From Candidatus Woesebacteria bacterium (GTDB lineage: Bacteria; Patescibacteriota; Microgenomatia; UBA8517), in the NCBI GenBank assembly GCA_963716475.1, contig OY970314.1, forward strand, positions 74,479-138,478: a stretch of 64,000 nucleotides of DNA, written 5' to 3'. Shown here piece by piece: positions 4,107 to 34,435 of this stretch. Position 1 is the first letter of the stretch. The number at the start of each line of letters is the position of its first letter. A program made the position numbers and the translations under genes. Below the pieces are notes generated by a model. That model had not been told where the DNA came from. It did no database searches and saw only the letters and a program-made list of their open reading frames with translations.

Positions 4107-4121
4107 CCGAAGAGTAAATAA

Positions 4122-4196
4122 GCCCTCGTAGCTCAACGGATAGAGCAAACCCGTCCTAAGGGTGAGATGACAGTTCAATTCCGTCCGAGGGCACCA
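4122..4196 (+). tRNA. tRNA-Arg (anticodon CCU)
   Basis: Hand-folded. Acceptor GCCCTCG/CGAGGGC, D-arm GCTC-AACGGATA-GAGC, anticodon stem AACCC/GGGTG with loop GTCCTAA giving anticodon CCT, T-arm GACAG-TTCAATT-CCGTC with one A·C mismatch, discriminator A, and an encoded 3' CCA. Confidence 0.75.
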
Positions 4197-11518: not shown

Positions 11519-11524
11519 AGCCGT

Positions 11525-11557
11525 ATTATATCGCACGAATGCCTTGTGGTATAATTT
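11525..11557. promoter_or_regulatory. back-to-back -10 elements for divergent, apparently leaderless ispA-like and uppS transcripts
   Basis: Plus strand TGGTATAAT (11549-11557) lies 6-7 nt before the uppS ATG at 11564. Minus strand GATATAATA (complement of 11525-11533) lies about 6 nt before the GTG at 11518. Confidence 0.35.
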
Positions 11558-11563
11558 CCTGAT

Positions 11564-15394: not shown

Positions 15395-18300
15395 ATGCCC
15401 ACAAAAGAAAAAATCTCCGCGGTAAAAAAAGTTTTGGAAGGAATTTCTGTCTCTTCTGTTGCATCTGAGGCCGGGGTTGCCAGAAAAACAATATATTCGT
15501 GGCTAAATATTTATAAAGCCGCTGCCAAAAGAAACAAAAAAACCTGTCTCTTGCCCAAATATGTGGCGGGAAGGGCTCACCCGAGGGAATATACGCACAC
15601 TTTGGAGCAGAAGACAGTAAGACTAATAAAGAAGGACCCGACACTTAGCGTTTCCAAAATGGCTGAAAGATTAAACGCAGGACATCATGCGGTTTACAAT
15701 CTTTTAAAGGCCTTAAAATTGAACACAGAAGATTCCAGGCTTGCATACTCCCGGATTTACTCATATCCCGGTATTTTTGACCCCCAAATTAAGGAATCGG
15801 TTGCAAGGAAAATTGTGAATTCGGAAGGAAAAGTCACGGATATTTCCAGGGAGCTACGGGTTTCCAGAAAGACTATATATAAATGGTTAAAAGAATACAA
15901 AGAGAAGGGAACAGTAAGAAATAACTATTTGAAAGGTTTTGAACACCCCAGATCACTTGGCCCGGAGGCGGAAGCGTCAGTGCTCTCGCAAGTCGTAAAG
16001 GCGCCGGAACTTTCAATTCATGCCTTGGCCACCGGTTTAAACTTTTCCAATCATGCGGTTTTTAATATTCTAAAAAGAAATTTCCTGACTCAAAGAAATG
16101 CCAGGATTATCTATTCTCAGGCTCAGGCTATCCGGGTTTCCGAAAAACCGGAAGCTATCGGTTTTATCGACAGGATAAAGAGTGTTTTTGAAACCTTTAC
16201 TCCGAATCTGGCCCCGGCTCCGCCTCCGGGGGGAAAATCCAAGTTTAGCCCTCTTCTTAAAATCTCCCTGGCTTCGATAATCGTTTTACCGCTTTTCACT
16301 CTTGCCCTGGTCTATTGGGTGAATCTATTAAGGTCCGGTGCAGCAGGGAACGTCGTCGGGCTTATCTTTGCCACAATATCCCTGATTATGGGTACTTTCT
16401 TCTTTTTATATTCACTCAAATATTATTTTACGGTCGCTTTGGTTCTTTCCCGCACCCAGCAGGAAGGGTCAAAAAGCCGTACTTCTATCGGTCTTGAACC
16501 CAATCTCGATCACGTAATTCTCACAAAGAAGCCATACATATCAGTTCATATACCTTTTTATAATGAGAAGAATGTAGTAGAGCGTGCAATTGAGGCTTCA
16601 ACCAATTTCGATTACCCGGAGTATGAAGTGATTCTTTGTGATGATTCAACCGATGAAACAACAACCATTATCAGGGATTATCAAAAGAAATATCTTTCAA
16701 AAGGGGAGAGCTTAAAAATAACTACCAATAGTCAAGACGGCTGGGAGCTGTCCCATGTGGATGTCAGACCGGGAGTAACCCTTAAACATCTTCACAGGAT
16801 CTCAAGAGAAGGTTACAAGGGGGGAGCACTCAGGCTAGCTCTTACTCAGACTGATCCCAGGGCTGAGTTTGTCTCTGTCTTTGATGCCGATTTTGTTCCA
16901 TATCCTGATTCTCTAAACCTTTTCCTCAAGTACTTTAAAGCTGAGAATAACATGAGTGAGGATTATACAGTAAGTAAGGTTGCTGCGGTTCAAGGTTACC
17001 AGTGGCATGTACTTAATAAATCCGAAAACTGGATAACCAGGGGTGTCAGAAGTGAATATGCAGGTAGCTACGTTATCGAAAGAGCGGGAACTGAAATCTA
17101 TGGGGGACTAAAACAAATCTCGGGGTCAGTATATATGATTAGACGTAAGCCCCTAGAAGAAGTAGGCTGGGCCACATCAATCACTGAGGACTTTGAACTT
17201 ACTCTCAAACTATATAATGCCGGCTACAAGGTGGTCTATACACCTTATATACAAGCTCCTGCAGAATGTGTATCAACCCTAAGACGCTTAGTGAGGCAAC
17301 GTATGCGTTGGGCCGAGGGTCATTCTTTCAATGTCAAAAAGATGTTTGCAAAGCTTATGTTCTCTCCGAAACTTTCTTCTGCCGAGAAGTTTGAAACGGT
17401 TTACCTTGCCCCTTACTACCTTCAGGCATTCTTTTTTGTAGTCGGAACTCTTTCCTGGTTTATCAGTGAGACTCTCCTGCCTGCCCGTCTGCCTTTCTGG
17501 ACAGAACTTTGGGGATGGAGTCTGGTCTTAACCAACATGGTAGCCCTTCCCCTTATGAACACCGTCGGAATGTTCCTGGAAGAAAGTGAACAGAAGGACT
17601 ATACAGGAATACTATCATTCGTCGCTCTTTCATACCTTGTGGTCCCGTTTCAGGCCTACGCGGCTGTCAAGGGCTTTCTGGAGACCTCAGAAGGGCCTTG
17701 GTTTAGAACTCCCAAGACCGGTAGAATCACAGACGTCTTTGCCAGGGGTAAATTCTACAGGCTTATCAGACAGATCCTTCCCAGAAGAGCCACCTCATTC
17801 CAAAGTACTTATTCATACAACTACATTACCTTAACGACAGCAAATAATAGATTTAGCAATTTTAAAATAAAAAGGTCGGGAAATAAATATATTTCAAAAG
17901 CATTACTTACGGGATTAACGATTATTATTTTACTTTTGAATCAACTTAGCTTCTTTGCCCCGGGAGTACTTGCGGCAAGTCCTAACCCTACTATTGAACA
18001 ACAAATAAATTTTATGGATAAATTATACTCTACAACCAGCACGAGTGCCGCACCGGGCGATAATTCTTTAGGAATGTTTACTTGGAATGACTCAAAATAT
18101 AATAACGCAACTGTTAATATGGACTATGATGCTGGGAAAAGCGGAAACTTGTCTTATGGCCTAACTTCTGTGGGACTTTCTTTGGTTAATGGAACAACAT
18201 ACACACCGGCAATAAGGTATCAATGTCTTGCAGTGAGTGGAATAGCAACCGAATACGCTATTCCAGGGTTATATACGTCAGGTGGAGTTTTAGTTCAATT

Positions 18301-19282
18301 CTCAGAAGTTTCAATTTCTCTCGGCGAGGTTCCGGGTGGGAAATGTCCTACTTCAGCGAACAGAACACCTGCATATATTGCTGCGGCACGCCTAAGAATT
18401 GTACAGACAAATGCTACCGGAATTACAAATACCAGAAACATGATTGAACTGGGAGATGGTGAAACCATTTCAACAGGTACAACAGCAACTCAGCTAACTT
18501 ACCCCAAATATTGGCTTTATACATCGGGAAATTATGACGGGACTGTTACTACGACTTTTGAAGCGACTGTTTGGAGGGCCGGTGGCAGTTCATACACCGC
18601 CTACGTATGTCTGTATTCTACAGCAGGCAGTGAGATCGGGTGTGTGAGTACCACAAGTACATCCCCGGCTTACCCGACCGCAGTAAGCGTAACCCTGTCA
18701 AACGGAACCGAATATGAAGTAAGAGTCAAAGCCAGCGCAGCCGCAAAAACTGTATATATTGCAAACGCTAAAGTTATAGTTGATCAAGCAGCGGCAGGGG
18801 GAATTACCAAATTGGAAACAGTGCAACATTATAATAACACTCTGGCAACGGAATCAACATCTTCCTATGTTTCTAAGCAATTTTTAACCGAGTTTGTTTT
18901 GGATAACTGGTATGGCGGAACGTTTGCTGCCTATTTTGAGTCGGATATAAAGACTAATAACAGTTCAAATGCCTATTATGCTCGTTTGTACGATATTTAT
19001 AATGCTACCCCTATGGGAGAGATTACAGGTAATGATACTTCCTATGTTAGAAAAACCAGTTCGGATATATGGAGTTCTCTTGCTGCGGGTGGCAATACAA
19101 TGATAGACGTTCAACTGAAAAATAATTCGACCAGCACCACCTCATCATCAAATTCTTGGTTAATCATTAAAGTAACAAATTTACAAGTGCCCGAGAAGCT
19201 TATTTTTGCCCTGCCGTTGATATCCTTAATCCCGATTATAATTAAAAAAAGGAAGGAGATTCTATTAAATAGAAATGGTTGA
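15395..19282 (+). CDS. giant multi-domain surface protein 1: IS630-like HTH repeats + processive GT2 (cellulose-synthase-like) + Ser/Thr-rich ectodomain + VPE-type exosortase sorting tail
   Basis: 1295 aa. Two HTH pairs (…ARKTIYSWLNIYK…, …SRKTIYKWLKEYKEKG…). GT2 motifs VHIPFYNEKNVVERAIE, ILCDDSTDETT, FDADFVP and QRMRWAEGH (QxxRW), plus gating-loop-like WFRTPKTGRITD. Multiple TM helices. C-terminal tail VPEKLIFALPLISLIPIIIKKRKE. Confidence 0.85.
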   Translation: MPTKEKISAVKKVLEGISVSSVASEAGVARKTIYSWLNIYKAAAKRNKKTCLLPKYVAGRAHPREYTHTLEQKTVRLIKKDPTLSVSKMAERLNAGHHAVYNLLKALKLNTEDSRLAYSRIYSYPGIFDPQIKESVARKIVNSEGKVTDISRELRVSRKTIYKWLKEYKEKGTVRNNYLKGFEHPRSLGPEAEASVLSQVVKAPELSIHALATGLNFSNHAVFNILKRNFLTQRNARIIYSQAQAIRVSEKPEAIGFIDRIKSVFETFTPNLAPAPPPGGKSKFSPLLKISLASIIVLPLFTLALVYWVNLLRSGAAGNVVGLIFATISLIMGTFFFLYSLKYYFTVALVLSRTQQEGSKSRTSIGLEPNLDHVILTKKPYISVHIPFYNEKNVVERAIEASTNFDYPEYEVILCDDSTDETTTIIRDYQKKYLSKGESLKITTNSQDGWELSHVDVRPGVTLKHLHRISREGYKGGALRLALTQTDPRAEFVSVFDADFVPYPDSLNLFLKYFKAENNMSEDYTVSKVAAVQGYQWHVLNKSENWITRGVRSEYAGSYVIERAGTEIYGGLKQISGSVYMIRRKPLEEVGWATSITEDFELTLKLYNAGYKVVYTPYIQAPAECVSTLRRLVRQRMRWAEGHSFNVKKMFAKLMFSPKLSSAEKFETVYLAPYYLQAFFFVVGTLSWFISETLLPARLPFWTELWGWSLVLTNMVALPLMNTVGMFLEESEQKDYTGILSFVALSYLVVPFQAYAAVKGFLETSEGPWFRTPKTGRITDVFARGKFYRLIRQILPRRATSFQSTYSYNYITLTTANNRFSNFKIKRSGNKYISKALLTGLTIIILLLNQLSFFAPGVLAASPNPTIEQQINFMDKLYSTTSTSAAPGDNSLGMFTWNDSKYNNATVNMDYDAGKSGNLSYGLTSVGLSLVNGTTYTPAIRYQCLAVSGIATEYAIPGLYTSGGVLVQFSEVSISLGEVPGGKCPTSANRTPAYIAAARLRIVQTNATGITNTRNMIELGDGETISTGTTATQLTYPKYWLYTSGNYDGTVTTTFEATVWRAGGSSYTAYVCLYSTAGSEIGCVSTTSTSPAYPTAVSVTLSNGTEYEVRVKASAAAKTVYIANAKVIVDQAAAGGITKLETVQHYNNTLATESTSSYVSKQFLTEFVLDNWYGGTFAAYFESDIKTNNSSNAYYARLYDIYNATPMGEITGNDTSYVRKTSSDIWSSLAAGGNTMIDVQLKNNSTSTTSSSNSWLIIKVTNLQVPEKLIFALPLISLIPIIIKKRKEILLNRNG

Positions 19283-19838
19283 AAAAAGGAAAATTATAAA
19301 TATTTTGCTTATAGCCAGCCTAATTTTGGCTTTACTGCCTTTTTATGTGAGCTTTCAGGATTTACTTACAAATATAGTTATGAAGGTAAATTTGTATAAA
19401 GCTTTACAAAACACAATTGTGCCATATGAAATGAAAGTGGTAGGCGGAATTATAAACCTGTTACGTTTTCCGATTAGCGCAGGCAGTAGTTATTTTTCAT
19501 GGAATATAGCCAATGGTAAAAAAGAAGCAGTCTATTTGGCCTGGAACTGTATTGGTTGGCAGACTATGATACTGTTTTTGGTGACATTAGTTACAGGTTT
19601 TTCAAAAAGACACCTCTTAAGTTCAAAAATTGAAGCTATTTTAATAGGAGCGCTAGGGACATATATAATAAACATTGTAAGGATTACTGTTGTTATTTTG
19701 ATCTATTTCTGGTTTGGCCGGGGGTTTGGAATAATATTCCACGATTACTTCTCATCTCTAATTACAATATTCTGGTTAATAGGGTATTGGCTGTTTGTTT
19801 ATAAACATACCCTAATAGAAAAATCCGTCGAAGAGTAG
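19275..19838 (+). CDS. mini exosortase/archaeosortase-like polytopic membrane protein (cassette 1)
   Basis: 187 aa, about 5 TM. Conserved WNCIGWQ (Cys), NIVRITV (Arg) and IFHDYF (His) shared with the two paralogues downstream of the other giant genes. Its ATG overlaps the giant gene's end by 8 nt. Confidence 0.7.
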   Translation: MVEKRKIINILLIASLILALLPFYVSFQDLLTNIVMKVNLYKALQNTIVPYEMKVVGGIINLLRFPISAGSSYFSWNIANGKKEAVYLAWNCIGWQTMILFLVTLVTGFSKRHLLSSKIEAILIGALGTYIINIVRITVVILIYFWFGRGFGIIFHDYFSSLITIFWLIGYWLFVYKHTLIEKSVEE

Positions 19839-20437: not shown

Positions 20438-20473
20438 TTGACAGGTGTTAGGATGGTTGGTAACAATGAATAT
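20438..20473 (+). promoter_or_regulatory. sigma-70-like promoter upstream of giant gene 2
   Basis: TTGACA (20438) -N17- TAACAAT, then ATG 20474. The ORF track's TTG start at 20438 is this -35 box. Confidence 0.4.
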
Positions 20474-23400
20474 ATGCCCTTTTCCGAAGCTAAAAGAGAA
20501 AAGATCGTTTTATCCGTACTAAAGGATAATATTGCGGTTTCGGAAGTCTCCAGAAACTACTCTGTTGCCCGAAAAACTATTTACTCTTGGATAAAGAGGT
20601 ATAAAAAGGGAAGTCTTGCTCCACTATATACAAAGGGCAGGAAACACCCGGCGGCCGTATACCCGAAAGCCTATTCTTATATAAGTAGATGGGCTGTAGG
20701 GCACCCCAAGTGGGGATGCCGCACTTTGAGTAAAAGATTAAATGAAAAAGGAATCAGCTTGAGCTACGTTCAGGTTAACAGATTGTTGAACACAATCGGA
20801 GCGGAGACTTATGACAGAAGGTTGAATTATGCCAGAAACTTTGCCGGTCCGGGGAGAACCAGGGAGGATGTCAGGCTTGAAATTGTCAAAAAGGCCGTTA
20901 CCGGGAAAATTTCCATTACAACTCTTTCCGAAAACTACAAAGTTGCCCGTAAGACCATATATAAATGGATAGCGAAATACCGGGCCATTGGTAACATTAA
21001 AGATTCGTACGTCGTTGGTGAGGCTCATCCCAAGGCAATCTACCCGAAAATTACGCAGCAAGTACTCGACTTGGTCGTTACAAACCCCGGTTATTCGGTA
21101 CGCACTCTGGCTAAATCATTTCCGGCATCCTCTTGGACCATCTGGAGTATTTTAAATAGAAATAATCTGAATACATATAATTTAAGGCTCGAATATTCCA
21201 GGAATATATCTGAGGCTGCCGAAGAGAAAGTCTCGACAACGGGAGTTTCCGAAAGGATAAGATCTGTTTTTGAAAGCTTTACTCCAAATCTGGCTCCGGC
21301 CCCGCCTCCGGGGAAACGTAAAATCTTCAACTTCTTCATTATTTCAGTCTTCCTCTTATCAATATCCTTAGCAATTTTCTATTGGGGATCCGTAATTGTT
21401 CACGCTCCGAATATTGCCGGGTCCATAGGCATGATTTTTGCAGGCGTCTCACTGTCACTCGGAATGTTTTTCTTCCTTTATTCTCTTAAATACTATATTT
21501 CTACAGCGATAGTGCTTTCATATTCACAGAAAGAGGGCTTAGATGCCTCGAGAGTAAGCGCTACCGGCTTAAACTCAGACCTCAGTAACATTCATCTTGA
21601 ACGGCATCCTTATGTCTCGGTTCATCTGGCTCTCTATAACGAGAAGAATGTGGTGGAAAGACTGATGAAAGCAGCTACTTCTTTCGATTACGACAATTAT
21701 GAAGTAATCATCGCGGATGACTCAACTGATGAAACCACCGACAAAATCAGGGAGTTTCTGAAAACATTCCTTCCTAAAGGTGAATCGCTTCGGCAAACCA
21801 AAGGGGACGGGTGGGCAATGACAGAAGTTGACATAAGGAGCGGGGTTGTCTTTAAACATGTCCATAGAACCACAAGGATGGGTTATAAAGGGGGAGCGCT
21901 GAAGCTTGCCCTTTCTCTTACCGACCCGAAAGCTGAATTTGTTTCTGTCTTTGATGCCGATTTTGTGCCTTACCCAGATTCCCTGATGCTATTTCTTAAA
22001 TACTTCAAACTACAGAATAATGGATCAGAAGACTACAAAACAAGTAATACTGCATCAGTTCAGGGCTATCAGTGGCACGTACTTAATAAATCAGAAAACT
22101 GGATTACTAGGGGAGTCAGAAGTGAGTATGCAGGTAGCTACGTAATAGAAAGAGCCGGAACCGAAATCTACAAAGGCCTAAAGCAAATCTCGGGATCAGT
22201 TTACATGATCAGGCGCGATGTTTTGGAAGGAATAGGTTGGGGTACTTCTATCACTGAGGACTTTGAGCTTACCCTGAAACTCTACGAAAAAGGCTACAAA
22301 GTGGTTTATACGCCGTATATTCAGGCTCCGGCTGAATGCGTATCGACCCTAAGAAGACTTGTCAGACAACGTATGCGTTGGGCGGAAGGACATTCTTTCA
22401 ATGTCAAAAAGATGTTCGCAAAGCTTATGTTCTCTCCAAAACTTTCTTCCGCCGAGAAGTTTGAAACGGTTTATCTTGCCCCTTACTATCTACAGGCATT
22501 ATTCTTCCTCATCGGAACTCTCTCCTGGTTCATTTCGGAAACCATTTTACCCGCCCGCCTTCCTTTCTGGACAGAGCTTTGGGGATGGAGTTTGGTTCTG
22601 ACCAATATGATTTCACTGCCGCTTCTAAACACAGTCGGACTTTTCTTAGAGGAATCGGACAGAAAGGATTACTCGGGTATTCCATCTTTTATAGCTCTTT
22701 CATATATAGTTGTTCCGTTTCAGGCCTATGCGGCTGTAAAAGGCTTTCTGGAGAAGGAGGAAGGACCATGGTTTAGAACTCCGAAAACCGGCCGCATTAC
22801 GGATGTTTTCAAAAGAGGTAAGTTCTACAAATTTATTTCCGGGATCTTGCCGGGGAAGGCTGCCGGTTCTGCCACGAGTTATGATCTAAGTCCTTATCTT
22901 GCCCTGACCTCAGCCAATAATAGATTCAGCTCGTTCTCCATTCAAACAAGAAAAGGCAGAAGGTGGGTGGGAAAACTAATGCTAACCTCAATGCTTATTA
23001 TTTCCAATCTTCTTCTTTCTTTTTCTCCTTATATTGAATCAAGGGACGGCAACAGCCAACCTCCTCCGGGAACAGGTATTCTTATGGATGGCAGTACAAA
23101 AGGATCGGGAGGCAAGGTCAATTTAACTCCTGAGCAGCAGCAGTCTTTGGACAAATCGATTAAAGCGAATAACCAAAAAACAAGCTTTAAACTGGTTAGC
23201 GATGTCTCGGCAGCAGAAATATCCGGAGGCAGTGAGGTGAACACCTCCTTTGATGTTAAAAAGAAAGACCTTGAACTTAGCGGGGGAAATACCACCTTTA
23301 CAACTGATGAAAATCCCCAATTTACCTTAAAGCAGAACGACGGTTTTTGGGAATTTATCAAGAATATTTTCATTAAAGAAAAACCCTTGAAAGATCAGGT

Positions 23401-26400
23401 TGTTGTAACAGTTTTGGACTTAAAAGGTAAGGAGGTGGGAAGCCCGCAGGTGGTAGAAGGTGGAATTGATGATTTAAGTATAAATCTTGACAAAACAACC
23501 CTTACTCCGGGCGGATATACTCTTGAGATCAAAAGTGGGAGTAGCCCCGTTATCACCCAGGATTTCAGTTGGGGAGTGCTGGCAATAAATACCAATAAGT
23601 CGGTATATAGTCCGGGTGAAGACGCCTCCATTTCAATGGGGGTTCTTAATGAAGTTGGAGAAACGCTTTGTAGCGCGGGACTAACGCTTGATATTACAGA
23701 CACGGCAGGCACAGTTACCGCTTTAACCACAAAGGAGGGCACCATTAAAGTCAGCGATGAATGCAGCCTCAAGGGCTTCAGCCTGAAACCCGACTATGAA
23801 GCAGCCTACAAAACAACGGTTGCAGGAAAGTACAGCATGGTTCTGACTGCAGAGACTCTTAACGGCAAATATGTTATCAAGGGTTGGTTTGAGGCAAAAG
23901 ACTCGGTCGATTTTGACGTCGAAACGATTACGGCCTCCAGAATTAATCCGGTTTATGAATACCCGGTTATTTTTATAGTTAAGGCGGGTAAAGACTACAA
24001 TGGCATTGTTGAAGAAAAAGTCCCGGCCGGCTTTGAAATCAGTAAACTCAACGACTTAAAGTTGAATAACTATCTGGATTCTAAAGGGGAAAGTACGGCA
24101 AGCGGTAAACTTCAGGAGACACTGGTTAATGACGGTTCACAGGAGGCGGGACAAAAAACACTCCGTTGGATTGTTGACTGGAAAAAAGACCAGACTTATG
24201 TTCTTGCATACGCTTTTAAAGCGCCGATGGTCAGTCCAGAATTTTATCTACTCGGGCCGCTCTGGATCGGGGCATATGAGGGAGCGGGAGGTTGGCAGAT
24301 AGCCGCGGATAAGGTCCCTGCTGGGATTATTGTCGGTTGGCCGTCAACTGTAGCCTCAATTCCTAATCACTGGAGCAGGGTTTCAGGCGCGGCTCTTGAC
24401 GGGTACTTTTTAAGATCAGTAACAGCAACTGATCCGTCGGGTACTCCCGGAGGAAATGCCAGCCATACTCATTCACCGGCGAGTCATACTCATTCCGTTC
24501 CTGTCCATACACATACAGTTCCCGCTTTTGCCCAATCAACCAATACTTCGGCAACGACGGGTAACTCTACGGGTTCCGCCCGTGATACTCATACTCATGC
24601 GGCATTTAGTTCCGGAAATTCCAACGTAACCGTCAATAATGCCCAGACGGTTCCTTTTGCGGGACTTTCCAATGACCCCGATAATTCAACCGTCATCTGG
24701 ATCCAGTCGGACGGAGACCCGTCTACCGAAATTCCGGTAGGGTCTTATGTTTACTTTGACTCAAACACCATGCCGGGAGCCAACTGGGGTAGAGTAAAGG
24801 GAAATTACTTCCTTAAAGGTGCGGCAACGGGTTTAGGGGGAGGAACCGATACGGTAACAGGTTCCGCAACTCATACCCACGCCGCCTCAGCCGACCATAC
24901 CCATACTGAGGCTGCCCATACCCATTCAGGGAGCTCGGCAGGAGGTTCACTTGCTGTTTCCAGTACGGGAACTGGGTCTTACTCTCCGAGTGGCCATACA
25001 CATACCGTTACCTCAAGCTCCGTTGCGGCAACGGAGGGAGGAGCATCGGTAACCCCGACAGTCGGAGTGGCCGCTCCCTCGGGAGAACCTCCTTGGTACA
25101 AACTTAATATCATTAGTAAGTCTACAGGTGCTAATGAAACTCCTTTAAATGTCATTGCCATGTGGACCGGAACTCTGGCAACAATTCCCGACGGTTGGGT
25201 AATTTGTGACGGAACAAATGGAACTCCAAACCTGGGTACAAACTTTATCAAAGGCGCAAATGCCGACGGGGAGCTCAATACCACCGGGGGTTCCCTTACC
25301 CACACTCATGGGGCAGGCAATACCCATACACATACAATAAATGCTCACGTACACACCTGGACGGTTGGAGCTGCCTCCGGAACCGGTGTTGGATTAACGG
25401 GAAATGGAAGATCAGCCGTGGTCAGTACTCATACACATACCCTCAGCGCTGCGCAAACATCAAGTGGCGGAGGTTCAACAGGAACGGCAACTATTACGGC
25501 CGACTCGCAATCTAATCTTCCTCTCTACAAAGAGGTTGCCTACATTATGTATATCGGTAAGACTGTTGCCGGTAAAGCCTATTCGGATGAAGCAACCAGT
25601 ATCTGGGCCGGTTGTGACAACTCGACTGCCAGAATAAGTTTGGTAGTTAACGGCGGTACAGCCTCCACAACCTCATGCAGCAGTTCAGACGGATCTTTCA
25701 GTTTCAAGAATGTTACTCACGCGACAGATAATCCAATATCGGTATTTTTTAATACCGCAGGTAGCAATGCCGACAAAGGTGTGGCAGTTACTATCGCCAA
25801 CGATGCCACTACTCCGATTACCCTTAATCCCAGAAAAAATATTGTCTGGATGAGGAGTGAGAAAGCAACACCGACCATTACCAACTCCAATCTGGCTCAT
25901 TGTTATGCCTCAACCCCCGCAAGCTGTGCCAATGTCCCGTATTCTGCTTCGGGAGCCAATATAACCCTAACTACTGGAGTTGAGCTTCATGTAGAAAGCA
26001 GTATGACATATGATCCCGGGGGAACCACTGCAACCACCGGTACCGGAAGTCTGCATGTGGATGACAATGCTGTCGCATACTTGGATACTACTGGCAATAC
26101 CATTGCTAATAATATTTTAGTGGATGCCGGGGCGACCATTCATATTGATGCCAGTACGGCAGTAAACGGGGGAAATATCACGGTTACAGGTAACGGAATA
26201 GTATCTTCAGCCGCCGGAACCGTAACTATGGGGGCAAGCGGAACCATTGGGGGAGGATCAACAGGATCTACCTTCCAGTTAACAGATCTTGTTGTTTCTT
26301 CGGGGACTACAACCCTGGGGACGGATGCCGACAATATACTGGACTTTACCGGGGATATCAACGTTTCGGCCGGAGCCGTGCTTGCCATGAACAATAAAAC

Positions 26401-29400
26401 CGCTAATGTAGACGGAGGAAATCTGACGACAACTTCTACCGGGTCAGTTACCTGTTCAGGTTGTACGACTGGCGGTTTAACAATTTCAGGAGTCGGAACA
26501 ACAAATGGTATAGGCGGGGGAGGTGGAGCTATAACTTTATACAACCTGACACTTGACGGATCAACCAATACCACAACAGTCGGGTCAAGCGCCATTACGG
26601 TAACCAATGATGTAACAATAGGTACGGGAAGAACCCTGTCAGGAGCCGCATCAGGAACAATCTATGTGGGACACAACTGGGCCAACAGCGGCACTTACAA
26701 TGCCAACTCGGGAACTATTAATTTAAATGCAGCAGCCGATACTGTTCAACAGATAACAGGTGCGACCACATTTTATAATTTATATGTAGCTACTGGAGAT
26801 AGGATTATTAAATTTGGTTCATCAACCGCTTTTACCATTGATACCGGAGGAACCTTTACGGCAACAGGGGATTCCTGTTCGGCACTTGTGGTAATCCGTT
26901 CAACCACTTCCGGGAGTGCCGCAACAATTACCAAGACAGGTTCCGTTTCCTTCTCATATATAGATATACAGGATATCAACTTTTCGGCTTCTGCCTCGGC
27001 TTCTAATTCAGTCGATTCCGGAAACAACAGTAGTATCGTCATTGCAGCCAATAGCTGTCTTGGTGCATCAACCAATAACCAAGCCGCAACAGGTCATTCA
27101 TTCCAGAGAAAAGTATTCTATGATTCCGGGAATAATGTCTACTGGGGTTTCTACCATGACGGAACCCAGATCGAAGTCAGGTATTCATCAAATAGTGGCT
27201 CTACTTGGAATGTAGAAAATGACCATCTGGTACAAAATACCAACGACTTTTCCGTCTGGGACCAGACAATCTCCTCCTACTACGTCTTTTTGGCAGCCAA
27301 AAGCAGCGACAGTATTGTCTTAAGAAGAGGAACAATAACTTCAGGTGCAATCTCATGGGACAGTGAAACAACTCCGGTTACAGCCTTTACGGGGACGGGT
27401 TCAGGCGATTCTTATTCCTATCCCTATATCTCTGCCGATTCATCCGGTAATCTCTGGGTGGGAGCCAGATATTTTAACGGATCAAGTTATGTCTACAAAG
27501 CAGTCAAAAGTAACAATGCAGGAAGTGCTACCTGGACAAACGCTGCTTTTACCTGGGGAGATCCTTCTCAAATCTCTAATGATCAAGCCGACCCTAACGT
27601 TTTTGGCAATGTAGTATCCATAGGCTCGCTGAATATGTACGCAACATTCGTAGTAGGTACAACTATCAAAGGCTGTAAATACACCAATTCTCCTCCTGCC
27701 TGGAAGAATTCAGCAGGGACAGATTCATGCGTAACAACCGAGGGTAGTGGCGGCGGGGAGTCAACATATTTTGATAGCTTAAGTACCGGGTTAGTTGCGT
27801 ACTGGAAAATGAATGAAACTTCCTGGACAGGAGCGAGTAACGAGGTGGTTGATTCATCAGGCAACGGTAACAATGGAACTCGTGTAGGCGATGCAACAAC
27901 AACGGCTGCAGGGTTTTATAGGTCAGGAACGTTCGATGGGACGGGAGATAGGGTTTCTGTTCCTGACAAGACAGACTGGACATTATCGTCCGGAATAGAT
28001 CTGACATATTCAACCTGGATTAATTATACCGTATTGCCGGGGAGCACCAATTGGCCTGGTATTGTTGAAGGAGGTGATGATATGTATGGTTTCCAAATGA
28101 ATGGGCCCACTACCGGGAATATAGTTGTAGATTGGTGGGACGGTACTGTTGACCATACATCATCTTCGCAGGCTGTATCTGTCGGTACCTGGTATCATGT
28201 CGTGATAACTTTAGATTTTGGTGTAACTAATGGTTCCCATTGGTATTTTAACGGTAGAGACCTTGGAACTTTTACCGCACAAGATCGCAGTGTAAATCCT
28301 GATGCACTATATATCGGAGGTAGTGTTACCAATCCCGTTTCAAACAACGCTGTTAATGGAAAGATTGACGATCTGAGAATTTATAACAGGCTACTCTCTG
28401 GTGAAGAGGTTGCCAAACTTTATCAATATGCCCCGGATAGAGTCAATATCGACGATGCCAGTGATTTTAATGCTCCGTCCGGTAGACAAGTTGTTAGAGC
28501 GAAAAACGGGGATTTGTATACTTTTGTCAATGATGCGGGGACATGTGGGGTATGGAAGTCAACTGATGGAGCAAGTTGGTCAGAACAGGATAGTACTCAT
28601 CATAAAACTTGTATGAGTTATTCGGGGGTATCAATAGCGATTGATTCAACTGATAAGTTACATCTTTTATACGCTTCAGGATCCAACACCTTACAATATG
28701 ACACGTTTACTGCCGGGGCTTTTTCTATTCTTAATGAAAATATTTATAATGATGTTGGTGGCAATGGGCTAGGGGGTTTTGATATTGCTGTTGATGCAAA
28801 TAATATTCCCCACGTAGTCTATGTATACATAGACACGTTTACCGATAATCAACTTGGTTACGATAACCGTGTAGGTGGCGCTTGGAATGGTTCAGATGCT
28901 AACCCCGATACTGATAGTGTCGGATTGCTGTCTCCAACAATAGAGATTAATGAAACTGGGTATCCGGAAGTCTCATATATAAAGGCTAGTACTGGGGTTT
29001 TAGTGGCTAAGGCGGGAAACGGAAATGACCCCAATTTATGGGCAGGTTATAGTATAGATACGAGCGTTAATGTTACTGGCGGTCAGGGGGGTGCTTCAAT
29101 TGCAGTAGACACCTTGACCGGTAATACGTGGATAGCGTATGTCGACGGGGATAACGATATTTCTTTGGCAAAATATTCAGGGACGGATTATTCCGGATGG
29201 GAGACAGCCGGTAACTGGGCCACCGTGACCAGTAAAAGCGACGATGGGTACGACCCGTCAATTGCCATTACCGGACCTTCCGATATTTATGTTTTTTATC
29301 AGGATGATGGGGTGGCGGATAACGGAACTAATAAAAGGATCTCTTACGATATATATGATTCGATAGGAGAAGATTGGGCCGGGGAAGTTCCCCTACAAAC

Positions 29401-31612
29401 TCCAAGTTCAGGAGATTTTAAAACTGTTAAAGCCAAGTGGAGTTTTGAATGGAATAATTATGGTGCAAACAGGATTGATTATCTTTTCTCCGACGGAACC
29501 GATGTCTTCTGGAGCTATCTATACCTCCGCCGTCAGCCGACCAATATAGATGACGCCTCAAATATGGGAGCTCTTCCGGGAGAAGGCAGGCAGGTGGTGA
29601 GAACGTCAAGCGGGTATCTTTACTCTTTTATTGCCGGGAAAATGTGGAAATCAACCGATGGTGGAGCGACCTGGGCTCAAAAAGGTGCGAGTAAATCAGG
29701 CATTTTTAACACTCTAGCAGTGGGGTCGGATGATACATTACATGTCACCTTTGGGACGAGTACTACAGGTATTTTTTATGATACTTTTTCTACGTCTTCT
29801 GAAGCTTTTGCGGGATTAAATCAATCGATACATGCTTATACTGCAGGAGAGTCTATTGAAGATAGTGTGTCGATGGCATTGGATTCGAATGATATACCGC
29901 ATGTAGTTTATATTTATAACAATTCAGGCGCCACGGATACTTTTTTGATTTATGACAGCAAAGTCGGGGGTTCATGGCATACTCACTACTTGGTTTTGGA
30001 AGATAACGCGACGGGAGGCACAACCGATATTTTTAGCCCCGAAATAACGATTAATGAATCTGATTATCCTGAGGTTGTTGAATATAATGCCATGACCGGA
30101 ACGGTTCGAGGCAAGGCGGCAAATGCCAATGCTGCGACGGCGTTTGCGACCTATGTTATAGATGACAGTGTTGTAGGAACGCCGACTATCGGTATTGATT
30201 CGTCAGGAAATACCTGGGTGGCCTACGCAGACTCGGGAGATAAAATATCACTTGCAAAATACTCGGGCACTGATTTCACAGGCTGGTATACCTCGGGAAA
30301 CTGGGCTGTGAATACAAGTAAAACTCAAAAAGGATATAAACCTTCGATCGTAGTTGACGGAACTAATATTCGTGTTTTATATCAGGACGACCAAAACGAT
30401 ATTGTTTATGACACGTTTAACGGAACAAGTTGGAGCGGGGAGACTCTTCTGGAGGAACATGCAGCCCTGCAGGATGTTAAAGCCAGAGGGAGCTTTCTGA
30501 ATAATTATGATTCAACCGGGGTAGCACAGTTGAAATATAATACCTATTATTTTAATACTTACGATGGCGAACTTGGTGATCCGAATGGCGTATGGGGTAA
30601 TGATGCAAGCGCCTTTGATGGAAATACCGGTACCTCTGCCACTTCCGGCGTAAATGGGTCAACATCAAGTAATTATTTAATGGGTACAGGAACCAGTGCG
30701 CCGGCAAGCGGAGAAACGATCAGTAGTGTTCAGGTAAGATTTTATGGTGGTCAAGTTGTTGATTCTAATACAACGGTATATGCGACAGTTTCTTCTGGCG
30801 GAACAGAAATTGGAACAGCTACTATTTTTAAACTCAATGATCCCGCCTGGAGTGGTTTTGTTACTCTTTCTGCGCCCGGGGGAAGCTGGGACTGGTCTGA
30901 GGTGCAGGGATTAAATGTAAAATTATATGCCACAGGCATAGTGACTGGCTCTGTAGCGGTAAGGAAAGTGGAGATACAGGTCAAATCGACAAGTACAACT
31001 TCTCAGGCAGAAGTTGATTATGTGTATTCTGATGGCACGGATGTGTTTTACAACCGCCTGCTTTTAGGCGGTACCAGCTCAATTTCGGGAACCCAGGATC
31101 CGATTGACGACTTGATCCCCGCTGATATATCTAAAAATATCTCAACAGTTGCCGACGGGAGCGGGAATGTCCACATACTTTATATCAAGGACTCCGCTAC
31201 GGATTATGTAGCTTACAAGAAGTGGAACGGGACAAGCTGGGATGTAAGCCCGACGAGTATTGAATCAAACGCCAACGCAGCCTATCTGACACTATCCCGT
31301 GCCTCGGATACGGGAGATCTCTATGCCCTTTGGATTGACACATCCGCCAATACAATCAGAAAAAGTATATTTACCTCAAGCTGGTCCGGTCCTACCGCCT
31401 GGCAGAATCCGGGTGTAACAATCACAAACCTTTCCTCTTCGTATTCTGCATCCGCAGTATTTTCTGAGTGGACAATCGGAGCCCTTGCTCCTTTTGAAAT
31501 AAATGCTGGCGTGCTTAAAGTTCCAGAATATCTGCTTTTATTCCTACCCCTTGCACCGCTTTTGCCGTTTTTATCAAGAGTTAAGAAGAAAAGGGGAGCT
31601 CTGATTAGGTAG
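20474..31612 (+). CDS. giant multi-domain surface protein 2: HTH repeats + GT2 + ectodomain (His/Thr repeats, beta-helix-like, LamG-like, tandem BNR-like modules) + VPE-type sorting tail
   Basis: About 3712 aa from MPFSEAKREK, by analogy with the gene 1 N-terminus MPTKEKIS. GT2 motifs VHLALYNEKNVVERLMKA, IIADDSTDETT, FDADFVP and QRMRWAEGH, plus WFRTPKTGRITD. LamG-like block (…DDLRIYNRLLSGEEVAKLYQ). BNR/Asp-box WKSTDGGATW. Tail VPEYLLLFLPLAPLLPFLSRVKKKRG. Confidence 0.85.
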   Translation: MPFSEAKREKIVLSVLKDNIAVSEVSRNYSVARKTIYSWIKRYKKGSLAPLYTKGRKHPAAVYPKAYSYISRWAVGHPKWGCRTLSKRLNEKGISLSYVQVNRLLNTIGAETYDRRLNYARNFAGPGRTREDVRLEIVKKAVTGKISITTLSENYKVARKTIYKWIAKYRAIGNIKDSYVVGEAHPKAIYPKITQQVLDLVVTNPGYSVRTLAKSFPASSWTIWSILNRNNLNTYNLRLEYSRNISEAAEEKVSTTGVSERIRSVFESFTPNLAPAPPPGKRKIFNFFIISVFLLSISLAIFYWGSVIVHAPNIAGSIGMIFAGVSLSLGMFFFLYSLKYYISTAIVLSYSQKEGLDASRVSATGLNSDLSNIHLERHPYVSVHLALYNEKNVVERLMKAATSFDYDNYEVIIADDSTDETTDKIREFLKTFLPKGESLRQTKGDGWAMTEVDIRSGVVFKHVHRTTRMGYKGGALKLALSLTDPKAEFVSVFDADFVPYPDSLMLFLKYFKLQNNGSEDYKTSNTASVQGYQWHVLNKSENWITRGVRSEYAGSYVIERAGTEIYKGLKQISGSVYMIRRDVLEGIGWGTSITEDFELTLKLYEKGYKVVYTPYIQAPAECVSTLRRLVRQRMRWAEGHSFNVKKMFAKLMFSPKLSSAEKFETVYLAPYYLQALFFLIGTLSWFISETILPARLPFWTELWGWSLVLTNMISLPLLNTVGLFLEESDRKDYSGIPSFIALSYIVVPFQAYAAVKGFLEKEEGPWFRTPKTGRITDVFKRGKFYKFISGILPGKAAGSATSYDLSPYLALTSANNRFSSFSIQTRKGRRWVGKLMLTSMLIISNLLLSFSPYIESRDGNSQPPPGTGILMDGSTKGSGGKVNLTPEQQQSLDKSIKANNQKTSFKLVSDVSAAEISGGSEVNTSFDVKKKDLELSGGNTTFTTDENPQFTLKQNDGFWEFIKNIFIKEKPLKDQVVVTVLDLKGKEVGSPQVVEGGIDDLSINLDKTTLTPGGYTLEIKSGSSPVITQDFSWGVLAINTNKSVYSPGEDASISMGVLNEVGETLCSAGLTLDITDTAGTVTALTTKEGTIKVSDECSLKGFSLKPDYEAAYKTTVAGKYSMVLTAETLNGKYVIKGWFEAKDSVDFDVETITASRINPVYEYPVIFIVKAGKDYNGIVEEKVPAGFEISKLNDLKLNNYLDSKGESTASGKLQETLVNDGSQEAGQKTLRWIVDWKKDQTYVLAYAFKAPMVSPEFYLLGPLWIGAYEGAGGWQIAADKVPAGIIVGWPSTVASIPNHWSRVSGAALDGYFLRSVTATDPSGTPGGNASHTHSPASHTHSVPVHTHTVPAFAQSTNTSATTGNSTGSARDTHTHAAFSSGNSNVTVNNAQTVPFAGLSNDPDNSTVIWIQSDGDPSTEIPVGSYVYFDSNTMPGANWGRVKGNYFLKGAATGLGGGTDTVTGSATHTHAASADHTHTEAAHTHSGSSAGGSLAVSSTGTGSYSPSGHTHTVTSSSVAATEGGASVTPTVGVAAPSGEPPWYKLNIISKSTGANETPLNVIAMWTGTLATIPDGWVICDGTNGTPNLGTNFIKGANADGELNTTGGSLTHTHGAGNTHTHTINAHVHTWTVGAASGTGVGLTGNGRSAVVSTHTHTLSAAQTSSGGGSTGTATITADSQSNLPLYKEVAYIMYIGKTVAGKAYSDEATSIWAGCDNSTARISLVVNGGTASTTSCSSSDGSFSFKNVTHATDNPISVFFNTAGSNADKGVAVTIANDATTPITLNPRKNIVWMRSEKATPTITNSNLAHCYASTPASCANVPYSASGANITLTTGVELHVESSMTYDPGGTTATTGTGSLHVDDNAVAYLDTTGNTIANNILVDAGATIHIDASTAVNGGNITVTGNGIVSSAAGTVTMGASGTIGGGSTGSTFQLTDLVVSSGTTTLGTDADNILDFTGDINVSAGAVLAMNNKTANVDGGNLTTTSTGSVTCSGCTTGGLTISGVGTTNGIGGGGGAITLYNLTLDGSTNTTTVGSSAITVTNDVTIGTGRTLSGAASGTIYVGHNWANSGTYNANSGTINLNAAADTVQQITGATTFYNLYVATGDRIIKFGSSTAFTIDTGGTFTATGDSCSALVVIRSTTSGSAATITKTGSVSFSYIDIQDINFSASASASNSVDSGNNSSIVIAANSCLGASTNNQAATGHSFQRKVFYDSGNNVYWGFYHDGTQIEVRYSSNSGSTWNVENDHLVQNTNDFSVWDQTISSYYVFLAAKSSDSIVLRRGTITSGAISWDSETTPVTAFTGTGSGDSYSYPYISADSSGNLWVGARYFNGSSYVYKAVKSNNAGSATWTNAAFTWGDPSQISNDQADPNVFGNVVSIGSLNMYATFVVGTTIKGCKYTNSPPAWKNSAGTDSCVTTEGSGGGESTYFDSLSTGLVAYWKMNETSWTGASNEVVDSSGNGNNGTRVGDATTTAAGFYRSGTFDGTGDRVSVPDKTDWTLSSGIDLTYSTWINYTVLPGSTNWPGIVEGGDDMYGFQMNGPTTGNIVVDWWDGTVDHTSSSQAVSVGTWYHVVITLDFGVTNGSHWYFNGRDLGTFTAQDRSVNPDALYIGGSVTNPVSNNAVNGKIDDLRIYNRLLSGEEVAKLYQYAPDRVNIDDASDFNAPSGRQVVRAKNGDLYTFVNDAGTCGVWKSTDGASWSEQDSTHHKTCMSYSGVSIAIDSTDKLHLLYASGSNTLQYDTFTAGAFSILNENIYNDVGGNGLGGFDIAVDANNIPHVVYVYIDTFTDNQLGYDNRVGGAWNGSDANPDTDSVGLLSPTIEINETGYPEVSYIKASTGVLVAKAGNGNDPNLWAGYSIDTSVNVTGGQGGASIAVDTLTGNTWIAYVDGDNDISLAKYSGTDYSGWETAGNWATVTSKSDDGYDPSIAITGPSDIYVFYQDDGVADNGTNKRISYDIYDSIGEDWAGEVPLQTPSSGDFKTVKAKWSFEWNNYGANRIDYLFSDGTDVFWSYLYLRRQPTNIDDASNMGALPGEGRQVVRTSSGYLYSFIAGKMWKSTDGGATWAQKGASKSGIFNTLAVGSDDTLHVTFGTSTTGIFYDTFSTSSEAFAGLNQSIHAYTAGESIEDSVSMALDSNDIPHVVYIYNNSGATDTFLIYDSKVGGSWHTHYLVLEDNATGGTTDIFSPEITINESDYPEVVEYNAMTGTVRGKAANANAATAFATYVIDDSVVGTPTIGIDSSGNTWVAYADSGDKISLAKYSGTDFTGWYTSGNWAVNTSKTQKGYKPSIVVDGTNIRVLYQDDQNDIVYDTFNGTSWSGETLLEEHAALQDVKARGSFLNNYDSTGVAQLKYNTYYFNTYDGELGDPNGVWGNDASAFDGNTGTSATSGVNGSTSSNYLMGTGTSAPASGETISSVQVRFYGGQVVDSNTTVYATVSSGGTEIGTATIFKLNDPAWSGFVTLSAPGGSWDWSEVQGLNVKLYATGIVTGSVAVRKVEIQVKSTSTTSQAEVDYVYSDGTDVFYNRLLLGGTSSISGTQDPIDDLIPADISKNISTVADGSGNVHILYIKDSATDYVAYKKWNGTSWDVSPTSIESNANAAYLTLSRASDTGDLYALWIDTSANTIRKSIFTSSWSGPTAWQNPGVTITNLSSSYSASAVFSEWTIGALAPFEINAGVLKVPEYLLLFLPLAPLLPFLSRVKKKRGALIR
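28442..30560 (+). repeat. intragenic tandem duplication of an about 370-aa BNR/Asp-box-containing module within giant gene 2
   Basis: Module A starts VNIDDASDFNAPSGRQVVRAKNGDLYTF…; module B starts TNIDDASNMGALPGEGRQVVRTSSGYLYSF…. Shared blocks: NIPHVVYVY/DIPHVVYIY, ISLAKYSGTDYSGW/ISLAKYSGTDFTGW, YVFYQDD/RVLYQDD. A third degenerate copy lies near 31080. Confidence 0.7.
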
Positions 31613-33554: not shown

Positions 33555-34127
33555 ATGAATCAAAAAGCGCTTTTTAAACAAATACTGGCAACCCTTGTAA
33601 TTATATTGGCAGTTTTACCTGTGATTGTGACTTTTTCGGCAGTTTTGACTTCATTTTTCGAAAAAATTAAGCTTTATGTGTGGCTTCAGGATCTGGCTGT
33701 TCCTTTTGAAAGCAGACTGGTTGCGGTTCTAATCCAACTCTTTGGAATCAAAGGAATTATAACCCCCGGCAGCAGTTTTGCCATGGTTTTGCGGACATCC
33801 TCGGGGACTTTTACCCCGGTTGCATTGGAATGGAACTGTTTGGGCTGGCAAAGCCTGATTCTATTGGGTCTTACCCTAATAACAGGCCTCAGGGGAGCTT
33901 ACACGGGTTTAAGTAAAGCCCAGGTTGTTCTTTTCGGAATACTCGGAACTTTTTTATCAAATCTATTCAGGATGGCTTTTATTGTCATTCTGGCTTTTTA
34001 TTGGAATTCATTTGCAGCTATGATTATCCATGATTATTTTGCCAGTTTTGTCGCTATCATCTGGATGTTATTTTTCTGGTGGTTCTCCTACAGGTATATT
34101 TTGGAGGAAAAACCTGCGGGAAACTAA
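33555..34127 (+). CDS. mini exosortase/archaeosortase-like polytopic membrane protein (cassette 2)
   Basis: 190 aa. WNCLGWQ, NLFRMAF and IIHDYF motifs. Paralogue of 19275-19838 and 41283-41888. Confidence 0.7.
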   Translation: MNQKALFKQILATLVIILAVLPVIVTFSAVLTSFFEKIKLYVWLQDLAVPFESRLVAVLIQLFGIKGIITPGSSFAMVLRTSSGTFTPVALEWNCLGWQSLILLGLTLITGLRGAYTGLSKAQVVLFGILGTFLSNLFRMAFIVILAFYWNSFAAMIIHDYFASFVAIIWMLFFWWFSYRYILEEKPAGN

Positions 34128-34435
34128 ACCAATTTTTGCAATTTGAAATCGGGGAAGAGACGCTTTTTAATCAGGATGTCGCTTTCCTCGCCTATTTTAA
34201 TCGCTTCCAGTAAATTCTTCACCCCAGCCAAATTGATGCCCTTATTTTGCGTTAGGTAGCGTACAAATTGGAGTTTATTGATATCCTCAATGGAGAATAG
34301 TCTTCTTTTGGACTCGGATCGGTAGGGAGTAATGAGCCCGAGACTTTCGTAAAGCATAATTGTCCGTGGATGAACTTTCAAAAGTCTCGCAGCTATGGAT
34401 ATAGGCAGAATTGGACTCTCACTAAGCTCAGTCAT
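34124..34435 (-). CDS. MerR-family (HspR-like) transcriptional regulator
   Basis: 103 aa. MerR HTH (…ISIAARLLKVHPRTIMLYESLGLITPYRSESKRRLFSIEDINKLQFVRYL…). Confidence 0.75.
   Translation of the reverse strand: MTELSESPILPISIAARLLKVHPRTIMLYESLGLITPYRSESKRRLFSIEDINKLQFVRYLTQNKGINLAGVKNLLEAIKIGEESDILIKKRLFPDFKLQKLV

Follow-up and report, generated by a model that had tools for sequence, protein, structure and literature searches.

In a stretch of 64,000 nucleotides from Candidatus Woesebacteria bacterium (contig OY970314.1; hereafter the window), we found three giant proteins that end in the same tripartite tail, composed of a V-P-E signature, a Pro/Leu-rich hydrophobic span and a cluster of Lys and Arg residues. 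Each giant gene is paired with a gene for a hydrophobic protein of 187–201 amino acids (aa) carrying the motif WNC[IL]GWQ, which we call a mini-sortase. We propose that each tail is a dedicated C-terminal sorting or processing signal of the neighbouring mini-exosortase, and put the probability of this reading at roughly 75%. It is well supported that the tails constitute a conserved class of exosortase-type sorting signal, outside the curated models and the papers that we searched; that they are processed is what we infer.

An earlier reading of the window, made from the sequence alone, had described the tail on all three giants, and the C-termini that it quoted match the translations of the open reading frames (ORFs) exactly. 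Its ORF ends (19282, 31612 and 41273) were also right, while its tail starts were a few bases off frame or too short, and the hydrophobic span, which it gave as 17–19 aa, measures 15–16 uncharged residues in the window (Table 1). Between the basic cluster and the end of the protein lie 0–8 residues, and tail 3 has an additional VPEF six residues upstream of its VPE. That reading required the hydrophobic segment to be predicted as a transmembrane (TM) helix, which agrees with its TM-like hydropathy (the best 15-aa Kyte–Doolittle windows score 1.85–2.85) and with a helix predicted at low confidence by AlphaFold2, whose model of residues 271–1295 of giant protein 1 places the VPE in a coil that follows the last beta strand and precedes the terminal helix. 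The tails are also distinctive within the window. Among the 56 ORFs in the window that are 100 aa or longer, a mechanical rule (x-P-[ED], then 13–24 uncharged residues with a mean hydropathy above 1, then at least three K/R in eight residues), applied within the last 70 aa of each ORF, selected the three giants and no other.

Conservation was studied in 79 related loci, collected by a scan with one genome per species, together with the window. Since an initial strict regular expression overlooked many genuine tails (that of locus L001 among them), a hidden Markov model (HMM) was used instead. Trained on 35 tails, all from other genomes, it recognized the three tails of the window (E = 1.5e-8 for tail 3, 1.7e-7 for tail 2 and 9e-3 for tail 1) and no further window ORF. 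In the complete set it yielded 66 significant tails, all but one of them (65 of 66) no more than 40 aa from the C-terminus. When these are anchored on the proline, P is present in 100% and the following E in 98%. The preceding residue is V in 65%, I in 19% and L in 10% (94% together), and the one after P-E is N in 36%, K in 24%, Y in 13%, R in 12% and S in 4%, with Pro outside these top five. The helix carries a conserved P-F-L-P (45–62% per position), the uncharged span is 12–16 residues long in 59 of the 66 tails (range 11–19), and the basic part holds 4–6 K/R, with a median of five in the eight residues after the span. The nearest orthologue pair of tail 1, in L063, carries '...SWLIIQVSGLQVPENLLIFLPLVLFIPIII', and the orthologues of tail 3 in L001, L002 and L004 carry 'YTVVPEFTTVPENP'. 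P996 is invariant and E997 at least 90% conserved, and the surface region is otherwise variable, with very few conserved positions. The motif is thus kept in orthologues, across many Microgenomates lineages and in one cultured member of the Chloroflexota. Among the features by which such tripartite signals are recognized (10.1101/2023.06.07.544157), these were found: the C-terminal position, a near-invariant signature, a hydrophobic segment of TM length and a basic cluster.

A variant of the tail was also noted. It reads '[IV][TV][IV]PEIP[KR]' and continues with a TM segment with P..P, a basic cluster and a conserved cytoplasmic extension of about 30 aa that ends in 'LD.LPV'; it is carried by proteins P0101, P0118, P0130, P0132, P0134, P0183, P0126, P0144 and P0211. 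In the one locus examined for it (L085, with P0101), the gene downstream encodes a different membrane protein of 308 aa, not a mini-sortase, and the contig ends there.

The sequence-only reading had taken the WNC[IL]GWQ proteins for sortases. All three score 31.6–38.3 bits on TIGR04178, the signature model of exosortases and archaeosortases, whose cut-off is 23 bits, and by their sequences the mini-sortases are members of this family. In 18 aligned homologues C94-x-G96, N135-x-x-R138 and H158 (mini-sortase 3 numbering) are invariant, and all three window enzymes have them. These motifs correspond to C-x-G, N-x-x-R and H-x-x-x-G of EpsH, for which a putative Cys/Arg/His triad at the outer face of the membrane has been described (Haft 2006, PMC1569441), and in ArtA Cys173 and Arg214 are catalytically critical (PMC9263693). 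Hydropathy and AlphaFold2 point to 4–5 long helices with the Cys, Arg and His near helix ends, sidedness being taken solely from the positive-inside rule. The AlphaFold2 model of mini-sortase 3 (mean predicted local distance difference test score, pLDDT, 85.8) consists of long helices with a small beta element just before the Cys, and no solved structure resembles it beyond generic helix bundles. The window enzymes gave no Pfam match at E <= 0.01, PF09721 (Exosortase_EpsH) included, although this model is passed by some homologues and by the fusion protein P0288. Specific Xrt or Art identities were considered and rejected: none of the specific models accepts the mini-sortases, and ArtC, ArtH, XrtG and XrtX score far below their cut-offs.

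The association of the tails with the mini-sortases, which the sequence-only reading had advised checking, is upheld by gene order from both sides and by three gene fusions. In the window, the start of mini-sortase 1 overlaps the stop of gene 1 by 8 nt, mini-sortase 3 follows giant 3 after 9 nt, and mini-sortase 2 is separated from giant 2 by one gene. For 67 of the 84 assessable mini-sortase genes, the HMM found a tail-bearing ORF that ends no more than 3 kb upstream, and in 42 of those 67 its end lies between a 66-nt overlap with the sortase ORF start and 118 nt from it. Of the 31 HMM matches outside the training set, 27 have a sortase on the same strand no more than 3 kb downstream. In the related loci the mechanical rule selected 38 of the 138 ORFs situated at most 3 kb upstream of a mini-sortase, compared with 3 of the 709 others (Fisher p = 7e-29). 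Starting from the target side, six tail-bearing proteins picked independently of the sortase search (four gene-1 homologues, a second giant, which lies in L082, and the Dictyobacter protein described below) were all directly followed by a mini-sortase (HMM E = 1e-53 to 1e-78). A dedicated one-to-one pairing, as looked for in such systems (10.1101/2023.06.07.544157), is therefore seen from the sortase side (67/84), from the target side (6/6) and in the three fusions; the window contains three such pairs and other genomes contain adjacent ones.

The subtypes of tail and sortase also go together: '...YTVVPEFTTVPENP' tails precede the closest relatives of sortase 3, and a '...SWLIIQVSGLQVPEN' tail precedes the closest relative of sortase 1. 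Of the fusions, all of them predicted proteins from databases, P0288 and P0327 join a family 2 glycosyltransferase (GT2), a surface region, an 'EVPEN' tail and a mini-sortase, whereas P0257 joins a mini-sortase to a surface domain with an 'IVPE' tail and has no GT2. The three fusion proteins pass TIGR04178, as does the Dictyobacter enzyme. In a further protein, P0229, a mini-sortase is extended at its C-terminus by a segment that, judged by eye, looks like a methyltransferase.

Tails as short and compositionally simple as these could in principle resemble one another by chance, or as low-complexity hydrophobic sequence. The recovery of exactly the three window tails by an HMM from other genomes, the invariance of P and E over dozens of lineages and the enrichment upstream of sortases led us to reject a chance origin, the likelihood of which is practically negligible.

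The proteins that carry the tails share an unusual architecture. According to Pfam and NCBIfam, all three giants begin with two transposase-like helix-turn-helix (HTH) domains of the families HTH_23, HTH_28, HTH_Tnp_1 and HTH_32 (N-terminal regions 15395–16200, 20438–21400 and 35013–35800), followed by a membrane-embedded GT2 synthase module of the processive type, like those of cellulose and poly-N-acetylglucosamine synthases. In giant protein 1 this module matches Pfam Glyco_trans_2_3/Glyco_tranf_2_3 and is PgaC/CelA-like by NCBIfam. The region between GT2 and tail is rich in Thr, Ser, Gly and Asn; it forms a T/S-rich, beta-rich surface domain in giant protein 1, a very long surface region including Laminin_G_3 in giant protein 2, and a surface region in giant protein 3. 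In the AlphaFold2 model of giant protein 1, both the GT2 and the C-terminal beta-rich domain are confident, and the GT2 part matches BcsA, hyaluronan synthases and chitin synthases. All of the roughly two dozen complete tail-bearing proteins in the fetched loci have a GT2, and all but one have an N-terminal HTH; carriers without HTH are those of L078, the Dictyobacter protein and the two GT2 fusions. Database relatives of the gene-1 query region, which spans GT2, surface domain and tail, number more than 1,400. Among the best 120 of these, 84 have the tail, and the tail-less remainder is mostly fragmentary or of the variant that retains [V/I]PEIP. The HTH–GT2 fusion suggests a membrane-tethered DNA-binding function for a polysaccharide synthase.

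Hydropathy averaged over the family shows a pair of helices ahead of the GT2; QxxRW is followed by three hydrophobic segments, a strongly basic loop and a helix resembling a signal anchor. From this we would place the HTH domains and the GT2 in the cytoplasm and the surface region outside, with the tail probably oriented N-out/C-in. After the signal-anchor-like helix, 21 aligned homologues of the gene-1 subfamily have a conserved 'P...AxA' resembling a signal peptidase I site, and this internal site may split the synthase from the surface domain. In gene 1 itself, residues 826–866 (17870–17992) comprise a basic n-region, a hydrophobic core and then 'P..LAA|SP', the predicted cut falling behind 'LAA' at residues of about 860–863.

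Such carriers raise the alternative that the tail is nothing but a C-terminal stop-transfer anchor of the surface domain, and that the exosortase-like neighbour is not its protease but, for example, a scaffold for the polysaccharide product of the GT2 or a helper in its export. Several points would suit an anchor: the carriers sit in the membrane in any case, exosortase genes classically lie in exopolysaccharide loci (PMC1569441), and the neighbourhood in the window is rich in glycan and lipid-carrier genes. A plain anchor, however, needs no invariant P-E at its outer edge beside a freely varying ectodomain, nor does it explain why the subtypes of tail and sortase co-vary, why the Cys/Arg/His motifs of the enzyme are invariant, or why P0257 joins a sortase to a tail-bearing surface domain in the absence of any GT2. 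We therefore regard this alternative as unlikely.

For the dedicated sorting signal, we start from what was computed (motif conservation, C-terminal position, gene coupling, fusions, the enzyme family with its catalytic motifs, and the synthase-like GT2) and propose the following course of events, in which topology, cleavage, acyl-enzyme step and acceptor are what we infer. The N-terminal HTH domains and the GT2 catalytic domain would remain in the cytoplasm, and the signal-anchor-like helix after the GT2 module would export the Ser/Thr-rich surface region. The tail helix would then re-enter the membrane in the N-out/C-in orientation, pinned by the K/R cluster, which would place [V/I/L]-P-E at the outer face. 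There the Cys/Arg/His site of the mini-sortase, predicted near the outer helix ends, could attack the chain at or near P-E, so that the helix and the K/R anchor would be removed and the new C-terminus handed to an acceptor or to water. In the gene-1 subfamily, the surface domain may be cut from the GT2 beforehand, since the conserved 'P..AxA' follows the internal signal anchor; the tail would then be its only anchor.

Whether the new C-terminus goes to an acceptor or to water separates two outcomes. If the mini-sortase cleaves the tail hydrolytically, the ectodomain would be shed or matured and not transferred by transpeptidation to lipid, wall or glycan. The evidence for recognition applies equally to this outcome, and no acceptor-making gene is universally linked to the pairs, the genes between substrate and sortase varying by locus. 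In the analogous case of ArtA, lipid attachment comes after processing (PMC9263693), and EpsH has been proposed to act through a covalent intermediate (PMC1569441), both of which speak for transfer, while the sequence data fit release and transpeptidation alike. We view pure release as possible, though the less expected of the two.

A bolder form of transfer is that the locus may encode a self-contained 'synthase–adhesin–sortase' module, in which the mini-exosortase would join the V-P-E C-terminus covalently to the glycan made by the GT2 of the same chain, or to a lipid or wall acceptor. Synthase and surface protein would be made as one chain and separated at the internal signal peptide, the product would be a protein–polysaccharide conjugate on a single-membrane, ultrasmall bacterium, and the cytoplasmic HTH domains might couple the module to DNA binding or regulation. 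We offer this as speculation that is improbable as it stands. If true, exosortases and exopolysaccharide synthesis, connected since 2006 by genomic association only, would for the first time be linked by concrete chemistry.

Several observations weigh against a dedicated sorting signal. On the enzyme side, the Gly of H-x-x-x-G is mostly Ala or Ser in mini-sortase homologues. The tail helix is short (15–16 uncharged residues) and Pro-rich, with an AlphaFold2 pLDDT of about 42–54. The carriers are polytopic GT2 membrane proteins without an N-terminal signal peptide, whereas the secreted substrates of PEP-CTERM systems bear one (PMC1569441); after removal of the tail alone they would stay membrane-bound, and the signal peptidase-like AxA that could free the surface domain is clear in the gene-1 subfamily only, not being evident in genes 2 and 3. 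The topology derives from hydropathy and the positive-inside rule alone. Finally, for 17 of the 84 sortase genes the HMM detects no tail ORF upstream. In some of these cases a tail exists that it missed, but L017, L020 and L021, labelled Nealsonbacteria or CPR3, truly have none; the targets of such loci, if any, would be elsewhere or of a different kind. Mini-sortase genes without an upstream tail ORF in the fetched DNA include those of L017 (Nealsonbacteria), L020 (CPR3), L019, L021, L015 and L057.

The tails were compared with known sorting systems. At E <= 10 the three window tails matched nothing in NCBIfam or Pfam, and 62 tails from many genomes gave no match to Firmicu-, VPEID-, PEF-, PGF- or VPXXXP-CTERM. 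TIGR02595 matched one of the 62 (E = 0.023), PepA two (E = 0.1), and two further PEP-CTERM families one tail each. Membership in a catalogued *-CTERM class was rejected on the grounds that no curated model accepts the tails and only faint sub-threshold echoes of PEP-CTERM appear. For the same reason, namely that no curated *-CTERM model accepts them, it is fair to speak of a distinct variant class, as the sequence-only reading did; its wording of VPE rather than PEP was overstated, as the P-E core is shared and only the second Pro is missing.

One close catalogued signal is that of the PEP-CTERM/EpsH (XrtA) system, which has the same P-E core, a hydrophobic stretch of about 14–16 residues and a basic cluster, as well as the same enzyme motifs (C-x-G, N-x-x-R and His) and a link to polysaccharide biosynthesis (PMC1569441). 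One could therefore argue that the tails are ordinary PEP-CTERM domains with low model scores; every *-CTERM match among the 62 tails is indeed to a PEP-CTERM model. However, at least 57 of the 62 tails give no PEP-CTERM match even at E <= 10. At the third motif position, N, K, Y or R stands in place of Pro, so that the second Pro is essentially absent, and the TM segment here has a conserved P-x-x-P. The enzymes fail every specific Xrt model, and at 187–201 aa they are about two-thirds of the size of EpsH (254 positions in the Pfam model). Here each enzyme has one target, whereas there one enzyme serves many, and the carriers here are GT2 membrane proteins without signal peptides, whose N-termini are HTH followed by GT2. 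The hosts (Candidate Phyla Radiation, CPR, and Ktedonobacteria) have no outer membrane, and Firmicutes are likewise single-membraned. Because the second Pro is missing, TIGR02595 matches only 1 of 62 tails, the carriers have no signal peptide and the pairing is one-to-one, we conclude that the tails are not PEP-CTERM, and consider the opposite very improbable.

In its logic the system is closest to the XrtG/Firmicu-CTERM cassette of Firmicutes, which consists of a small exosortase, one Firmicu-CTERM target and XrtG-associated GT2 glycosyltransferases (PMC12854382). Both exosortases are small (187 positions in the XrtG model, 187–201 aa in the mini-sortases), and in both a dedicated target gene adjoins the enzyme and a GT2 belongs to the cassette, a resemblance of function and not of membership. 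Unlike in that cassette, the GT2, the two HTH domains and the target are here one polypeptide. Moreover, the mini-sortases reach 13–16 bits on TIGR03110 (cut-off 102.75), the GT2 of the giants 24 bits on TIGR03111 (cut-off 364), and the tails have no Firmicu-CTERM match.

ArtA of Haloferax volcanii, with its PGF-CTERM substrates, belongs to the same superfamily (TIGR04178); its tripartite signal is cleaved, the C-terminus is then lipid-modified, and its Cys and Arg are essential (PMC9263693). We used it as a working analogy because it is the only superfamily member we found with experimentally supported chemistry. ArtA is archaeal and larger, however, its signature is PGF and not VPE, its substrates are secreted proteins of the S-layer type, and the window mini-sortases do not match the ArtA model. 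Among the specific models, ArtC gives mini-sortases 1 and 2 their highest scores, and the PEF-CTERM signature also starts with P-E, but the three enzymes score 31, 19 and 15 bits on TIGR03762 against a cut-off of 100, and there is no PEF-CTERM match among the 62 tails. LPXTG/sortase A of Gram-positive bacteria follows the same logic, in that a motif, a TM helix and a basic tail are served by a transpeptidase with Cys, His and Arg and the protein is displayed on a cell with a single membrane, but it is an analogue only, as its motif is different and its fold and family are unrelated. In the literature, of which many subscription journals lay outside our search, we found no paper linking exosortases or archaeosortases with CPR, Patescibacteria or Microgenomates.

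Homologues of the mini-sortases occur in Candidatus Microgenomates, Chisholmbacteria and similar CPR/Patescibacteria bins. The 79 loci come mainly from Woese-, Curtiss-, Chisholm-, Levy-, Gottesman- and Daviesbacteria, and a small number bear the label Nealsonbacteria, CPR3 or Saccharibacteria. Many locus records are labelled 'uncultured Gammaproteobacteria'; we treated these labels as uninformative, the genes being related to the CPR mini-sortases of the window. A profile search of 1.84 billion cluster representatives returned 494 relatives at E <= 1e-3 and 189 at the stricter threshold of E <= 1e-10, and the family is modest in size and well delimited.

Outside these bins, the cultured Dictyobacter formicarum (Ktedonobacteria, Chloroflexota; BNJJ01000008.1, L080 8001–12388) encodes a GT2 protein without HTH that ends in the tail 'MQTPENLLFFIPLIFFLPKIMELWQKRK' and is followed by a mini-sortase of 208 aa. 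As the organism is in culture, a direct experimental test of a tail–sortase pair is feasible. The pair adjoins DDE transposase and resolvase genes, a setting that suggests horizontal transfer, and a second GT2 protein, of 1293 aa, is encoded 5.7 kb downstream.

Exosortase/archaeosortase systems are widespread. The system described here is an informative variant, in which enzyme and target are matched one-to-one and sometimes fused, and the target carries its own GT2 like those of cellulose and hyaluronan synthases; the candidate reaction partners are therefore found in one or two polypeptides. With the tail as a marker, a very large family of giant surface proteins also emerges in Microgenomates, organisms that are believed to live attached to other cells. 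Curated models for 'VPE-CTERM' and its sortase would improve the annotation of entries now named 'glycosyltransferase family 2' or 'helix-turn-helix domain-containing protein'.

Table 1. Features of the window and related genes beside the pairs in other loci.
Feature	Where	Coordinates (strand)	Description
Giant protein 1	window	15395..19282 (+)	1295 aa, from the ORF list
Tail 1	window	19187..19279 (+)	VPE 19187-19195; span KLIFALPLISLIPIII 19196-19243; KKRK 19244-19255; EILLNRNG; stop
Mini-sortase 1	window	19275..19838 (+)	187 aa; Cys92 (WNCIGWQ), N133-x-x-R136, His156; TIGR04178 38.3 bits
Giant protein 2	window	20438..31612 (+)	3724 aa, from the ORF list
Tail 2	window	31520..31609 (+)	VPE 31520-31528; span YLLLFLPLAPLLPFLS 31529-31576; RVKKKR 31577-31594; GALIR; stop
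Mini-sortase 2	window	33555..34127 (+)	190 aa; Cys95, N136-x-x-R139, His159; TIGR04178 32.2 bits
Giant protein 3	window	35013..41273 (+)	2086 aa, from the ORF list
Tail 3	window	41196..41270 (+)	VPE 41196-41204; span NPLLLFGLYPLFAGFL 41205-41252; KKLRRK 41253-41270; stop
Mini-sortase 3	window	41283..41888 (+)	201 aa; Cys94, N135-x-x-R138, His158; TIGR04178 31.6 bits
TMEM260-like/PMT_2 (GT-C) membrane glycosyltransferase	window	31625..33550 (+)	PF11028 92 bits; PF13231 38 bits; C-terminal TPR, sub-threshold
MerR-family regulator	window	34127..34435 (-)	MerR_1 53 bits; divergent from giant gene 3
Beta-lactamase2-family serine hydrolase	window	41966..42988 (-)	PF13354 110 bits; adjoins mini-sortase 3
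Beta-lactamase2-family neighbour	L004	767-1747
Beta-lactamase2-family neighbour	L038	2127-3101
Beta-lactamase2-family neighbour	L062	9013-9984
Beta-lactamase2-family neighbour	L071	2276-3250
Beta-lactamase2-family neighbour (further)	L058	5071-6069
Beta-lactamase2-family neighbour (further)	L052	10751-11734
Beta-lactamase2-family neighbour (further)	L028	3183-4214
MerR genes	L082	3245-3850 and 8771-9076
MerR gene	L085	3105-3410
MerR genes	L086	3020-3574 and 7823-8128

The gene between giant 2 and mini-sortase 2 (gaps of 12 and 4 nt, an operon-like run) encodes the TMEM260-like membrane glycosyltransferase, which may O-glycosylate the Ser/Thr-rich surface region. Homologues of this gene are absent from the other loci. 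In L008 (7410–9995), L067 (1471–4431) and L077 (7092–9998), the intervening gene product is a polytopic membrane protein that combines TPR with a spermidine-synthase-like domain, and elsewhere the intervening genes encode beta-lactamase-like or unknown proteins. The idea that target and sortase enclose a conserved accessory gene was rejected, as the intervening genes vary by locus and none is universal. Genes of the Beta-lactamase2 family stand beside mini-sortases in eight loci including the window, in four of them between tail protein and sortase, and the hydrolase may be an accessory enzyme. Opposite-strand MerR genes lie close upstream of giants in three other genomes as well.

Elsewhere in the window, a polyprenyl synthetase gene (10637–11611, minus strand) is divergent from an undecaprenyl-diphosphate-synthase-like gene (11564–12841, plus strand), whose 425-aa product has its Pfam domain at residues 20–239 and an unexplained C-terminal extension of about 185 aa. 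Three ORFs of 446–536 aa in a neighbourhood of glycan genes (13846–15228, 43814–45154 and 47385–48995) have no Pfam match at E <= 0.001. In L084, the mini-sortase is followed by a 442-aa gene product without a Pfam match, an epimerase and a GT4, a gene order shared with the window at 43814–47379. For RNA elements, Rfam gave nothing in the large intergenic regions; the only Rfam or ARAGORN matches in the window are two tRNAs elsewhere, tRNA-Pro(CGG) and tRNA-Arg(CCT), which stand in tandem at 4035–4196.

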